Source of the DNA: Candidatus Saccharimonadales bacterium
GTDB lineage: Bacteria; Patescibacteriota; Saccharimonadia; Saccharimonadales; JANWIN01
Assembly (NCBI GenBank): GCA_025449905.1
Contig: JANWIN010000012.1
Location: 1-43,317, forward strand
Reading direction: 5' to 3'
Length of the DNA: 43,317 nucleotides
Shown here piece by piece: positions 26,656 to 40,384 of the stretch. Both the position numbers and the translations under genes were made by a program. The notes under the pieces were generated by a model, which made no database searches, was not told where the DNA came from, and saw only the letters and a list, made by a program, of their open reading frames with translations. Position 1 is the first letter of the stretch, and each line of letters opens with the position of its first letter.

Positions 26656-27124
26656 AATCCTCCGAATTACCGAATATTTAATTAGCGGTGGAGCTTACTT
26701 CTGGTCCGGCTATTTGGCCTTTTTTGTTGGCGATCAAATCTTAGGACTTAATCTATGGTGGGCTAAGCTGGCAGCTAATATTTTTGGCTGGGTGGTTAAC
26801 TATTTACTTCAGCGCTTCTGGGTCTTTAAAAATCCGGCTCTAGCTAAGCATAAAACGGAAGTCACTAATCGCTACATTATTATTACTCTAGCTGATTTTG
26901 TTATTGATTATTTGATAGTTAATTTCTTAAAAGGCTTAGGTATTAGTCCCTACATTGGTCAATTTGTCTCCAGCGCCTTCTTTACCCCCTGGAATTATCT
27001 TTGGTATCGCTTTTGGGTCTTTCCAGAAAAATTTGTTAAACGTCGACCGGCTCATCAGGGCCCGGCTCGGATTGCCGCTCATCGAGCCCATGGACATAGT
27101 GCTTATCACAAAATGAGGGCCTAA
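26624..27124 (+). CDS. GtrA-family small flippase-like protein
   Basis: Four short TM helices, NYLLQRFWVF and WNYLWYRFWVF; start taken as ATG 26624 (TGtTATACT at 26601-26609). Confidence 0.85.
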   Translation: MLKLRKKQKREILRITEYLISGGAYFWSGYLAFFVGDQILGLNLWWAKLAANIFGWVVNYLLQRFWVFKNPALAKHKTEVTNRYIIITLADFVIDYLIVNFLKGLGISPYIGQFVSSAFFTPWNYLWYRFWVFPEKFVKRRPAHQGPARIAAHRAHGHSAYHKMRA

Positions 27125-28417: not shown

Positions 28418-28513
28418 AGACTTAACATCAAAATCGCTGGAAGCAGGTGAAATTCCTGAACTGTGCCGCAACGGTTAAAGTCCGATACAGCCTAAAAGTC
28501 TCCCGAGCAGGAG
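28418..28513 (+). ncRNA. Cobalamin riboswitch aptamer, compact class-II (AdoCbl-variant-like)
   Basis: GCUG-GAAG-CAGG(UGAAAUU)CCUG-AAC-UG(UGCCG)CA-A-CGG(UUAAAGU)CCG-AUA-CAGC four-way junction; P13 CUCC(CGAGCA)GGAG with a loop complementary to L5; TGcTATCAT promoter at 28407-28415. Confidence 0.85.
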
Positions 28514-36995: not shown

Positions 36996-38321
36996 ATGGA
37001 TAGAGTACTTGCAATAGATGTGGCCAAGCATGTTGGCAAAACAGTTCACACGCAAGGCTGGCTGCATAAAAAACGCTTGCTTGGCGGATTGACCTTTATT
37101 GTCCTGCGCGACCGCAGCGGCCTGGTGCAGATTGTTTTACACGAAGAAAATGAAGTTAAAAAACTGCACAACCTGCAAAATGGTACGGTGTTGAGTGTCA
37201 GAGGCGAAGTGGTAAAAGAAGAACGTGCGCCAGGCGGGTCTGAAATTCATCATGCCAAAATCGAAGTTACGGTGCCAGTTACCGAAACGCCGCCGATTGA
37301 AATTGATAAACCCATCAGCCATGATTCTGAAAATCTCGACACGCTTTTTGATAACCGGCCGCTAACCCTGCGCAACTTGCGCGAGCAGGCTATTTTTAAA
37401 GTTCAGGCTAAAGTCATGGAAGCTTTTCGAGCTTACCTCAAGCAAAATGAATTCACCGAAATGAACTCGCCCAAGCTACTGGCTGAGCCAACCGAGGGCG
37501 GGGCAGAGGTTTTTAAACTCGACTATTTTGGAAAGACAGCAACACTAGCCCAAAGTGCCCAATTTTATAAGCAAATTATGGTTGGTGTTTTTGAGCGTGT
37601 TTATGAAATGAACCCGACTTACCGCGCCGAGCCCAGTGCCACCACGCGCCACATGACCGAGTACATAACCATTGATGTCGAGATGGGCTTTACCGATTTT
37701 GAGGAGCTGCTCAATTTTACCGGAGGTGCGTTACTTAACACTGTAGGCGCGGTTCAAAAAGATTGTGTTGAAGAGCTCAAGGCGTGGGACGAGAGCGGTG
37801 TTGTTTTACCCAAAGAGGCTGAAAAGATTCCACGTATTACTATTGATGAAATTCATGAGGCATTTCATAAAGCCGGCAAGGGCGACTTCACAAAAGAAGA
37901 CGACTTGGCACCAGCCGAGGAACGCTGGGTTTGCGAATGGGCTAAAGACAAGCACGGTAGTGAAGCGGTTTTTGTTACCGGCTGGTCAGCTAAAAGCAAA
38001 ACTTTTAAGTTTTATCACCAGGCTAACGAAAAAAATCCAGAAATTGCTGACCGCGCCGATCTACTTTTTCGGGGTGTAGAGATTGCCACCATCAGCATGC
38101 GCGAGCATCGTTTAGAGCAATTAGTTAAACAGCTTAAAGCTATGGGTGGCGATCCAGACCATCCCGGCTATGTGCCCTTGCTTAGTGCTTACCGTTATGG
38201 GATGCCGCCGCACGGCGGTTTTGGCTGGGGTCTGGAGCGAACTGTTGAGCGACTTTTGAACTTGAACAACGTAAAAGAAGCAACCTTATTCCCACGCGAC
38301 ATCAACCGTCTTACACCTTGA
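36996..38321 (+). CDS. aspS: Aspartate--tRNA(Asp/Asn) ligase, short archaeal-type (probably non-discriminating)
   Basis: OB fold F..LRDRSG..Q, TEGGAEVF, LAQSAQFYKQ, YRAEPS.TTRH.TEY, PPHGGFGWGLER; 441 aa with no GAD insertion. Confidence 0.9.
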   Translation: MDRVLAIDVAKHVGKTVHTQGWLHKKRLLGGLTFIVLRDRSGLVQIVLHEENEVKKLHNLQNGTVLSVRGEVVKEERAPGGSEIHHAKIEVTVPVTETPPIEIDKPISHDSENLDTLFDNRPLTLRNLREQAIFKVQAKVMEAFRAYLKQNEFTEMNSPKLLAEPTEGGAEVFKLDYFGKTATLAQSAQFYKQIMVGVFERVYEMNPTYRAEPSATTRHMTEYITIDVEMGFTDFEELLNFTGGALLNTVGAVQKDCVEELKAWDESGVVLPKEAEKIPRITIDEIHEAFHKAGKGDFTKEDDLAPAEERWVCEWAKDKHGSEAVFVTGWSAKSKTFKFYHQANEKNPEIADRADLLFRGVEIATISMREHRLEQLVKQLKAMGGDPDHPGYVPLLSAYRYGMPPHGGFGWGLERTVERLLNLNNVKEATLFPRDINRLTP

Positions 38322-38331
38322 GGGTTTTGAT

Positions 38332-38634
38332 TTAAGCTGCAGTTGGAGAAACTTCTACACCAAAGCCAGTAATTGCTGCTTCTGCAAGTGCTTCGTCAAT
38401 GTGAGCAAAGACAATATCCGACCTTCGATATTCAGCCGAAACTATCATAGGCTTTGGTCTCAGCCGTCCAGCTTCCATGTTATCTAAAAGGTCTTCAATT
38501 TCTTTAATTATTTCTTGTTTATCGCCATCAGCTTCAGGATTCTGTCGCGTGCCGTTGGCCGATCTACGAACCCTCCGCATACCAGCATCAAGTACACTGT
38601 CAAGGGCAGCATCTCTTTTCTCAAAATCCTCCAT
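38332..38634 (-). CDS. Small orphan protein (100 aa)
   Basis: SD AGGAG upstream of the ATG; third of three co-oriented ORFs filling the aspS-pyrB gap. Confidence 0.7.
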   Translation of the reverse strand: MEDFEKRDAALDSVLDAGMRRVRRSANGTRQNPEADGDKQEIIKEIEDLLDNMEAGRLRPKPMIVSAEYRRSDIVFAHIDEALAEAAITGFGVEVSPTAA

Positions 38635-38662: not shown

Positions 38663-38899
38663 TTATACTCCGTTGTCAATAGCAATTGATGCTAGCTGTT
38701 GTCGAAGGGCAGGGCGGTCATCAACTTTGTGCCAATGAACGCGTTCCCCGCCTACCATATCGATATAGACAAAATTTCTAACTACGTCAGCAAAACCAGC
38801 TCGTCTTGGAGCCTCAAAACTTTCTGCTAAACCACCTTTTATTAATTTTAGTTGTGGTACTTGCTGAACCAGCTTGTCATTACGTCTAAAGAAATCCAT
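38663..38899 (-). CDS. Small orphan protein (78 aa)
   Basis: SD-like AAGGT 8 nt before the ATG; 17 nt after the previous stop; contains PQLKLIKGG. Confidence 0.6.
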   Translation of the reverse strand: MDFFRRNDKLVQQVPQLKLIKGGLAESFEAPRRAGFADVVRNFVYIDMVGGERVHWHKVDDRPALRQQLASIAIDNGV

Positions 38900-38916
38900 T
38901 GATTTTAACCTTTTGC

Positions 38917-39141
38917 TTAACCTGATTTTGGTTCACCAGTTTGGCCATCAAAGCCAAGCCAGGTTCGGTGAGGGCCCTCTAAAGCCCAGCTGTCTGTCGG
39001 TCGGCGAGGTACTTGATTACTCGCTGGGTAACTATCATTAGCTTCTGATTGACTAGCTAAGTGAACAGCAGCACCACCAACCTCTTGAACCCGCTGAGGT
39101 TCGGCTTCACCCTGTGGTTGTAAATTGTTTGGGTTTGTCAT
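38917..39141 (-). CDS. Small orphan protein (74 aa, probably disordered)
   Basis: AAAGGAG-N6-ATG directly downstream of the attenuator terminator; P/Q/E/G-rich. Confidence 0.7.
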   Translation of the reverse strand: MTNPNNLQPQGEAEPQRVQEVGGAAVHLASQSEANDSYPASNQVPRRPTDSWALEGPHRTWLGFDGQTGEPKSG

Positions 39142-39163
39142 TTTTTCTCCTTTCTAGAGAATT

Positions 39164-39192
39164 AAAAAACCTCCCGCTTCTGTTGGGAGGTT
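39164..39192 (-). terminator. Attenuator terminator (3:4 helix)
   Basis: AACCUCCC-(9 nt)-GGGAGGUU-UUUU on the minus strand. Confidence 0.88.
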
Positions 39193-39218
39193 CCTTTGCT
39201 TTTTATTGAATGGTCGAT

Positions 39219-39296
39219 TTAAGACAACGCTAAAGAACCTCCTCGTGCTGGCACGATGATTGTAAGCATCTTTACGCTGTAAATAAATGAAACCAT
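39219..39296 (-). CDS. Attenuator leader peptide MVSFIYSVKMLTIIVPARGGSLALS (25 aa)
   Basis: Translated by hand; ATG 7 nt after the -10; 7 of the first 15 codons are Ile/Val/Leu; its coding region carries helix segments 1 and 2. Confidence 0.78.
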   Translation of the reverse strand: MVSFIYSVKMLTIIVPARGGSLALS

Positions 39297-39303
39297 AAAA
39301 TAT

Positions 39304-39331
39304 ACATTACTCTGTTTACTATACTTGTCAA
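39304..39331 (-). promoter_or_regulatory. sigma70 promoter of the attenuated operon
   Basis: Minus strand TTGACA-N16-TAATGT. Confidence 0.65.
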
Positions 39332-39388
39332 GTTTATAAGCTTAAGCATTTTTTACCGTGGGCTTTAAATCGTACAATCTTGTGTAGT

Positions 39389-40384
39389 ATGCACACCCTT
39401 TCGGTCGACCAGTTTACTCCTGACAGCCTAGGAGAATTATTTGAGGACGCAGATCGTATGAGGTCCAGAGTTGAGGGGCGTAGTTGGCTAAGGCGACGAT
39501 TGGCGCGTAGGCACCTGGGAATTGGTTTAACGACATTATTTTATGAACCATCTTCTAGAACTAGCACCAGCTTCCTTGAAGGAGCGGGCAAGATGGGCAT
39601 GTATCTCATTCAAATAAATGAAGCTGGAACTTATTCTTCAGCAGCCAAGGGTGAAACCCTGGAAGATACCATCAAAACCCACAATGAATACAAAAAACCA
39701 ACAGGCATTATAGTTTTAAGACATCCTGAAACTGGAGCAGCCGCTAGAGCGGCAATAGTGAGCGAAAAACCTATTATTAATGGAGGCGATGGAGCGGGCG
39801 AGCATCCAACCCAGGCACTTTTAGACGCCTACACTATCCAACGCGCTAAGGGTCGGCTTGATAATTTACGCGTCGTTATTGGTGGCGATTTACTAAGAGG
39901 GCGCACAGCTCGATCACTAGCTAAGTTACTAAGTCTTTATAGAAACAATAGCCTGTTGTTTGTTTCTAAGCCGGGACTGGCAATGGCGGATGATATAAAA
40001 CTGCACTTGCTTAATTCGGGCACTGAATTTGAGGAAGCTTTTGAAATGAATGGCGTATTCAAAGAGGCAGATATTGCCTATTGGACACGCGAACAACTTG
40101 AACGGCCATTAGACAAAAAATCTGAAATGGATGTTGCTGTAGAAGAAGTACTTGAGAGTGCAATTCCAAGAGTAGATAAAGACGTGCCAGCTCTTGGTTT
40201 TGTTATTGATGAGGCTATAGCAGATTCTATGCCACCACAGACAAGAATAATGCACCCATTACCAAGGGTAGGTGAAATAAGCCCAGCTGTAGATAAAGAT
40301 CCAAGAGCAATTTACTTTCCTCAAGTTGGGAATGGTATGTACGCTCGGATGGCACTGATTGATAAATTACTAAGCAATAGCTAA
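39389..40384 (+). CDS. pyrB: Aspartate carbamoyltransferase catalytic subunit
   Basis: FYEPSSRT, SAAKGETLEDT, VLRH, NGGDG..EHPTQALLD, GRTARS, TREQ.ER, MHPLPR; start taken as ATG 39389. Confidence 0.93.
   Translation: MHTLSVDQFTPDSLGELFEDADRMRSRVEGRSWLRRRLARRHLGIGLTTLFYEPSSRTSTSFLEGAGKMGMYLIQINEAGTYSSAAKGETLEDTIKTHNEYKKPTGIIVLRHPETGAAARAAIVSEKPIINGGDGAGEHPTQALLDAYTIQRAKGRLDNLRVVIGGDLLRGRTARSLAKLLSLYRNNSLLFVSKPGLAMADDIKLHLLNSGTEFEEAFEMNGVFKEADIAYWTREQLERPLDKKSEMDVAVEEVLESAIPRVDKDVPALGFVIDEAIADSMPPQTRIMHPLPRVGEISPAVDKDPRAIYFPQVGNGMYARMALIDKLLSNS

Follow-up and report, generated by a model that had tools for sequence, protein, structure and literature searches.

A candidate attenuator with a leaderless leader ORF ahead of small orphan genes in a Saccharimonadales genome, and its relatives in the order

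The classical attenuation model describes the enterobacterial trp, his, leu, thr, ilvGMEDA, ilvBN, and pheA leaders. Here, we analyze an element at positions 39331 to 39164 on the minus strand of contig JANWIN010000012.1 from a Candidatus Saccharimonadales bacterium (assembly GCA_025449905.1); positions 1 to 43,317 of the contig, a stretch of 43,317 nucleotides (nt), are called the window below. The element is, in our judgment, probably a ribosome-mediated transcription attenuator with a leaderless mRNA as the template for its leader peptide. Like the enterobacterial attenuators, it has a short leader open reading frame (ORF), four RNA segments that can pair either as 1:2 plus 3:4 or as 2:3, an intrinsic terminator, a stop codon whose position would let a terminating ribosome mask segment 2, and candidate control codons upstream of segment 2. 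Unlike the enterobacterial leaders, its ORF appears to have neither a 5′ untranslated region (UTR) nor a Shine-Dalgarno (SD) sequence, its candidate control codons number no more than two or three, the entire ORF, start codon and all, lies within the hairpin, and the genes that follow are small disordered orphans in a 633-kb genome, not biosynthetic enzymes. Thus, known textbook logic would be placed here on a leaderless mRNA, in a small genome, with tiny orphan genes as its targets.

The nearest described relative, in concept, is a set of small ORFs (sORFs) in mycobacteria. These polycysteine sORFs are leaderless and form the first cistron, and the genes behind them are controlled by ribosomes that pause at codons for a single amino acid (Canestrari et al., bioRxiv 10.1101/834739). 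The present element resembles them in having a leaderless first cistron, as judged from its promoters, and in that several such sORFs in a genome, with three candidates here, could form a “ribulon”; it differs in having no Cys run, in having Ile (or Val/Met) codons at the corresponding place, and in having orphan genes as targets. The output would also differ from the mycobacterial sequestration of a ribosome-binding site, in that it would be an intrinsic terminator here and the downstream SD sequence lies outside the helices in the minimum free energy (MFE) fold. A further likeness is to the ermB/ermC, mef/mel, and bmrCD leaders, in which stalling on a short ORF switches RNA structures as we propose here; the bmrCD and mef/mel leaders likewise act through transcription termination. 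Those drug-inducible leaders are SD led, antibiotic responsive, and placed before resistance genes, none of which is seen in the present element. In the partial texts covered by our literature search, no such element is described for Saccharibacteria or Patescibacteria, and the element apparently belongs to a previously undescribed family.

A first-pass annotation, made from the letters of the window, had placed a promoter at 39331-39304, a leaderless ORF of 25 codons, and three mutually exclusive helices at this locus. We found both promoter hexamers at those positions and the ORF as described, with its ATG only 7 nt after the −10 hexamer. The MFE fold of 39305-39150 has a predicted energy of −42.9 kcal/mol, compared to −26.6 ± 3.6 kcal/mol for 200 dinucleotide shuffles (z = −4.48), none of which folded as well. 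This fold reproduces the proposed 1:2 helix (ACAGCGUAAAGA with UCUUUA-G-CGUUGU, enclosing CGUG/CACG) and the proposed terminator, in which AAGGAACCUCCC (39196-39185) pairs with GGGAGGUUUUUU (39175-39164) to give a 12-bp stem with a U run (39196-39164) that ends 22 nt before the next ATG. It also contains an additional outer helix, between AUGGUU (39296-39291) and GACCAU (39215-39210), the latter just after the stop codon; because this helix joins the start codon region to sequence past the stop, the hairpin encloses the whole ORF. The competing 2:3 duplex, of GGAGGUUCUUUAGC (39242-39229) with GCAAAGGAACCUCC (39199-39186), has a predicted energy of −20.7 kcal/mol, and in the MFE fold computed without segment 1, segment 2 (12 pairs) takes the place of segment 4 as the partner of segment 3. 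These folds, together with the covariation described below, bear out the three mutually exclusive helices.

The element is not a member of a known leader family by the models that we searched. At gathering thresholds, Rfam gave no leader-family match in the window, and a search of 38800-39700 at E values of ≤10 returned nothing near a gathering score and no known riboswitch or leader family; there was thus no sequence or model match to the Rfam leader families. The best match to an amino acid leader was to Phe_leader, with 18.1 bits versus a gathering score of 55 (E value, 3.6). The resemblance of the leader peptide to that of E. coli ilvGMEDA, which had been remarked on at the outset, is best read as an analogy and not as homology.

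Relatives of the element were found in other genomes of the order (the source genome, with the element on its contig 12, is labeled G000 among the sampled genomes, which carry G numbers). A DNA similarity search of 61 relatives gave one real match, in G043, that covered the terminator only, the rest being noise with E values of >0.01; the G043 locus has the same layout as the window element, with a different helix-arm sequence. A terminator pattern matched 3 of 401 genomes of the order and yielded a third copy, in G069, and a contig scan with an alignment of the 74-amino-acid (aa) protein encoded downstream gave one locus, on the G069 contig. From these three copies, we built a covariance model (R1), which at a cutoff E value of ≤0.01 had matches in 28 of 151 sampled genomes of the order. 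Inspection by eye and by script left 25 elements in 23 genomes, which we call the members and which are the base for most of the family counts given here. Five R1 loci were left out as noncanonical or unread: L043, L048, L051, and L053 had the terminator only or lacked a matching promoter and sORF, and L052, a partial match to the terminator alone, was not inspected. A second model (R2), built from 15 of the 25 retained elements and run on the same 151 genomes, added canonical copies in G054, G086, G068, and G073; three more of its matches, in G126, G136, and G099, are variant forms. With both models, canonical copies were present in 27 of the 151 genomes, or about one in six. The trp/ilv-style architecture proposed for the window thus recurs across its relatives, and the search of related genomes also found that the genes following the leader are small orphans with their own ribosome-binding sites.

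If the leader is translated, its frame should be marked by selection, and several observations point that way. A TTGAC(A/G) −35 hexamer stands at the homologous place in all 25 members, as does a TAnnnT −10 hexamer, and the start codon, chosen by its place after the promoter only, is ATG in 22 members and GTG in 3, always 6 to 7 nt after the TAnnnT hexamer. We infer from this promoter spacing that the sORF is leaderless, because neither a 5′ UTR nor an SD sequence would fit into so short a distance. Between the start codon and the purine motif of segment 2, the 25 sequences together contain 1 stop codon in frame 0, 25 in frame +1, and 28 in frame +2. All 25 members have the homologous ORF open, with lengths of 15 to 27 codons, and the leader ORF is held open only in frame 0; in 24 of them, its stop codon lies past the segment 2 motif but before the hairpin ends. 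An ATYATN motif, found in 17 of the sequences, is in frame 0 in all 18 of its occurrences and is preceded by 12 to 15 codons in all but one sequence; since it stays in frame while its distance from the start varies, length changes in the 5′ arm were multiples of three. Past the Ile codons the frame is not kept, with the segment 2 motif at codon position 1, 2, or 3, and the stop still lies within segment 2.

Close pairs of members also show changes of the kind expected for a coding sequence. The four codon differences between G112 and G059 are all synonymous (0 nonsynonymous), there are 3 synonymous and 0 nonsynonymous changes in core codons 11 to 17 between G121 and G078, and the nonsynonymous changes between G098 and G038 are confined to codons 5 to 12, which form a helix arm. 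We infer from these sequence comparisons that the sORF is translated. In a rough scan of G000 for a −35/−10 pair followed 5 to 8 nt on by ATG or GTG, ORFs of at least 63 codons (63 to 825) followed in 12 of 25 cases, compared with 9 of 65 for control triplets in the same scan, which suggests that leaderless mRNAs are common, or normal, in this organism. The promoter context is conserved among the members generally, in that G-C/T-G as a rule stands before the −10 hexamer, as in GGCGTAATCT or GGTGTATGCT.

Covariation among the members also supports the alternative pairings. In multiple-sequence alignments made with MAFFT (A1, A2, A3, and A7), the helix arms were not brought into register, and RNAalifold recovered only three pairs from A7 and only part of the hairpin from A2; we therefore used model-fitted alignments and alignment-free duplex tests. 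In A11, an alignment of 21 distinct members fitted to R2, 73.9% of cells in the hairpin and terminator hold standard pairs, compared to 64.1% ± 0.9% after column shuffles (0 of 500 as high) and 44 to 48% when the partner was slid by 1 to 3 columns. Double changes occur in 40 of the 49 pairs of this alignment, the terminator helix is 92.8% paired across the 21 members, and the helix that closes start to stop recurs in folds of other members. The antiterminator (2:3) pairing was not used in fitting the alignments. For this pairing, the mean energy of whole-segment duplexes is −23.6 kcal/mol with an element's own copy and −18.8 kcal/mol with other copies. When the invariant GGGGAG:CUCCCC core is removed, the means are −9.81 for own copies and −6.99 ± 0.48 for permuted ones, with 0 of 20,000 permutations as low; this test used 23 elements, identical copies being dropped, and kinship among them means that it gives no exact probability. 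In 20 of the 25 members, the stability of the 2:3 hairpin equals or exceeds that of the terminator.

The position of the Ile codons relative to segment 2 suggests how a ribosome could choose between these pairings. Ile stands at codons −4 and −5 from the segment 2 motif in 13 and 14 of the 25 members, respectively, and is followed by Val, Met, or Ala. In the window, Ile13-Ile14-Val15 lies at 39260-39252 and segment 2 starts at 39244-39242, about 12 to 15 nt downstream, a gap that would roughly equal the reach of a ribosome beyond its decoding site. The first-pass annotation had proposed a stall at Leu11 to Ile14; the Ile part of this proposal agrees with the fixed distance of the Ile codons upstream of segment 2, and Leu as a control codon is not supported.

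In the model that we favor, transcription would start at or beside the A of the AUG at 39296. With no ribosome on the leader, segment 1 would pair with segment 2 around the 25-codon ORF, the 3:4 terminator would form, and transcription would stop near 39164. A ribosome that reaches the stop codon (39221-39219) would cover segment 2, so that the terminator would form again. A ribosome stalled at Ile13-Ile14-Val15, in contrast, would occupy segment 1 and leave segment 2, which begins just beyond its leading edge, free to pair with segment 3 before segment 4 is made; no terminator would form, and RNA polymerase would then read into three small SD-led orphan genes. Sequence and comparison show that the helices compete and covary, that one frame is kept open, and where the Ile codons stand; translation of the ORF, with stalling as the trigger, is what these features suggest.

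What would make the ribosome stall is a separate matter. Low charging of Ile-tRNA, taken alone as the signal, seems to us a reasonable possibility that falls somewhat short of probable; we favor it because of the Ile positions across the family and because G000 has a second Ile-rich element. Contig C8 of this genome holds two more candidates, with starts at 26758 (+) and 44439 (+), whose sORFs encode MSKMTINNSFWFTDTTRGGLFRMF (followed by a 72-aa ORF) and MAQTTIIKIIRDSV (followed by a 79-aa ORF). Each has a promoter, a leaderless sORF, segment 2/3 pairing, and a terminator before a small orphan gene, and MAQTTIIKIIRDSV contains four Ile in 14 codons and has its own 2:3 and 3:4 pairings.

Several points weigh against the favored model. 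A simple consensus scan missed both the promoter and the minus-strand terminator and found only the plus-strand reading of the same palindrome (39168-39192); the terminator loop has 9 nt, above the limit of 8 in that scan, and the −10 hexamer TAATGT is weak, matching TATAAT at 3 of 6 positions. A11 and A12 (the latter model fitted to 15 type A rows) were fitted to the model structure, which favors the counts of 1:2 and 3:4 pairs taken from them. Counted by columns in A12, 2:3 pairing is 81.4%, versus 35 to 63% when slid, and does not exceed shuffles (80.3% ± 1.1%, 113 of 500 as high), because the type A rows vary little and the register shifts where they do vary. In G118 and G149, the aligned GTG was taken as the start post hoc, and an ATG 2 nt upstream opens only three codons. 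The candidate control codons are few (Ile-Ile-Val in the window), Ile is absent at the apex in some members (LVAM in G064, VMV in G107, and SPVY in G131), and other subtypes carry Ile-Met or, in one variant, MDMMM. Because the conserved apex AUUAUC sits in the apical loop, its conservation could reflect a constraint on the RNA. On geometric grounds, a ribosome stalled at codon 14 may also free the first ~25 nt to pair again with the 3′ part of segment 2. Finally, the regulated genes have no known link to Ile.

Alternatively, the same ribosome-dependent attenuator could respond to something other than low Ile-tRNA: a nascent peptide with or without a small molecule or antibiotic (as in leaders of the erm, cat, or bmrCD type), general translation stress, or the efficiency of leaderless initiation. 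We consider this unlikely. It would fit the small number of control codons, the lack of a relation between the regulated genes and Ile metabolism, the conservation beyond the Ile codons of a peptide-like core (K-L-x-I-I-V-A or A-I-M-T-A-G-E), and the purifying selection on core codons in the close pairs, and hydrophobic, Ile/Val-rich stall motifs occur in macrolide-inducible leader peptides. However, the C-terminal half of the peptide changes frame among members (the motif offset modulo 3 is 0, 1, or 2), and the N-terminal half varies freely with the RNA pairing, so that little peptide is left to act. The downstream genes are not resistance genes, and both the second G000 element, with its four Ile, and the MDMMM subtype carry what look like amino acid control codons.

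Two other explanations were weighed. A ligand or protein bound to the long hairpin could decide between 1:2 and 2:3, with the frame as a by-product; the outer helix takes in even the start codon, the helix arms dictate much of the peptide sequence, and the apex AUUAU, in a small apical loop, is conserved as sequence, all of which such an RNA-only switch would lead one to expect. It would not lead one to expect 1 stop in frame 0 compared with 25 and 28 in the other frames, an ATG or GTG at a fixed 6 to 7 nt from the −10 hexamer in every member, an Ile motif kept in frame in 18 of 18 occurrences despite indels, or change that is only synonymous in close pairs, and no Rfam family matched; we regard it as very unlikely. 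We find it highly improbable, too, that the locus is a stand-alone small gene, for a hydrophobic 25-aa peptide or an RNA of ~135 nt, with its own terminator and with the orphans expressed by leakage or from another start and not by regulated read-through. Promoter, ORF, and strong terminator do form a complete unit, and peTrpL and rnTrpL, a leader peptide and a terminated attenuator RNA, are reported to act in trans in other bacteria. However, the U run and the next ATG are only ~22 nt apart, with an SD sequence and no promoter that we could see in the gap; in the members examined, the leader is followed at once by a small gene with an SD sequence; and covariation of segment 2 with the 5′ arm of the terminator would be left unexplained by a stand-alone gene.

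Three identities drawn from known classes were rejected. A pyr-type leader was discarded, as pyrB lies on the opposite strand and neighbors the element in G000 and G089 only. For a T-box, we saw no specifier or T-box sequence and no Rfam match. For a type I toxin, the covarying antiterminator argues for control in cis; no antisense partner was looked for.

Under the attenuator model, the genes that would be switched on are three tiny orphans, as had been proposed from the window. They have no Pfam match, and in a search of 5.8 billion proteins, confined to near lengths, each of the three ORFs matched only itself. The description as orphans needs amending for the first of them, since relatives of the 74-aa protein stand behind the same leader in other genomes: 12 of the 25 first downstream proteins, including that of the window, form one loose similarity cluster. 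These proteins have no Pfam family, and a profile of their alignment had 15 matches with E values of ≤0.001 among 1.84 billion representatives. The AlphaFold2 model of the 74-aa protein has a pLDDT (predicted local distance difference test) score of 59.5 and no secondary structure. In the members examined, the next gene begins soon after the U run, has an SD-like purine run before its ATG, and encodes 53 to 138 residues.

In at least 16 of 29 member loci, as in the window, the cassette runs toward the 3′ end of an aspS-like gene; the count is a minimum, since the flanks cover only about 1.5 kb. In the window, the stop codons of downstream gene 3 and the aspS-like gene are 10 nt apart and we saw no terminator between them, so that read-through of the attenuator could run antisense into aspS. 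The features of the locus are collected in Table 1.

Table 1. Coordinates of the candidate attenuator and its neighboring genes in the window
Feature	Position	Strand	Basis or remark
−35 hexamer TTGACA	39326-39331	−	Read in sequence
−10 hexamer TAATGT (TAnnnT), 16-nt spacer from −35	39304-39309	−	Read in sequence
Putative leaderless leader ORF, 25 codons plus stop: MVSFIYSVKMLTIIVPARGGSLALS	39219-39296	−	ATG 39296-39294, TAA 39221-39219
Segment 1, 5′ arm of long hairpin including start codon	39261-39296	−	MFE fold and A11 covariation
Putative control codons Ile13-Ile14-Val15 (AUC AUC GUG), near apex	39252-39260	−	Codon positions in the family
Segment 2, GAGGAGGUUCUUUAGCGUUGU, alternative partner of segment 1 or segment 3	39224-39244	−	Folds and duplexes
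3′ side of outer helix, GACCAU, partner of AUGGUU start region	39210-39215	−	MFE fold
A-rich linker, unpaired	39200-39209	−	Folds
Segment 3, GCAAAGGAACCUCCC, 5′ arm of terminator and partner of segment 2	39185-39199	−	Folds and duplexes
Segment 4, GGGAGGUUUUUU, 3′ arm of terminator with U run	39164-39175	−	MFE fold
SD sequence AAAGGAG of downstream gene 1	39147-39153	−	Read in sequence
Downstream gene 1, 74-aa orphan, predicted disordered	38917-39141	−	No Pfam match
Downstream gene 2, 78-aa orphan	38663-38899	−	No Pfam match
Downstream gene 3, 100-aa orphan	38332-38634	−	No Pfam match
aspS-like gene	36996-38321	+	Convergent neighbor

Reduced epibionts such as the Saccharibacteria are not known to make amino acids. 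A broader idea, which we offer tentatively and regard as rather doubtful, is that the order has an Ile-responsive ribulon, in which each genome would have several leaderless leader-peptide terminator switches (three candidates here) that gauge host supply by the charging of Ile-tRNA and together switch on fast-evolving, disordered small proteins, in a syntenic slot by aspS, for starvation or host interaction; the Ile-Met and MDMMM subtypes would then sense methionine. If the attenuator works as proposed, it would be a first conserved cis-regulatory switch for this lineage, for which our literature search turned up no other; it would open a way to study the sensing of nutrient supply by an obligate epibiont, and it would flag as condition specific a family of small proteins that are otherwise invisible. 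The alignment and the two covariance models can be used in annotating these genomes.

The spread of the family was also assessed more closely and more widely than in the sample of the order. The model scan found one copy in the genome of the window, and a variant form was present in 1 of 7 other genomes of its own family (G007); a match in G003 was dropped as noncanonical. In a 151-genome sample of the phylum, convincing matches were confined to the two genomes of this order, and four matches outside the order were rejected because they look like plain terminators. A pattern scan of metagenomes returned three stretches: a pair of near-identical contigs that carry a related leaderless sORF, and a stretch with nothing more than a terminator behind a gene.

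The two metagenome contigs (L025 and L027) carry the sORF MTFILNTKYCCNPQFSSRSGGF, then a CAAACGAACCUCCC terminator and an unrelated downstream gene; in L025, the element lies at about 1119-1250 (−) and has an R1 score of 34.4 bits. L058 (G007) and L043 (G054) represent a variant in which the match to the terminator arm (GGUUGGAG...) comes immediately past the sORF stop and not inside the ORF. The variant loci L082 (G136) and L083 (G099) have Met-Asp-Met-Met-Met at the apex of their sORFs, MVIYNQQVMDMMMPPRPSRSLSIVS and MATNHNQTMDMMMSPRTSRSLSCMS, and a terminator core of CGGAGG instead of GGGGAGG; judged by these sequences, they may be a Met-sensing sister type. Elsewhere in the window, 28422-28498 (+) matches the AdoCbl-II (cobalamin) riboswitch aptamer with 36.6 bits versus a gathering score of 36.5 bits (E value, 3.7e-05).

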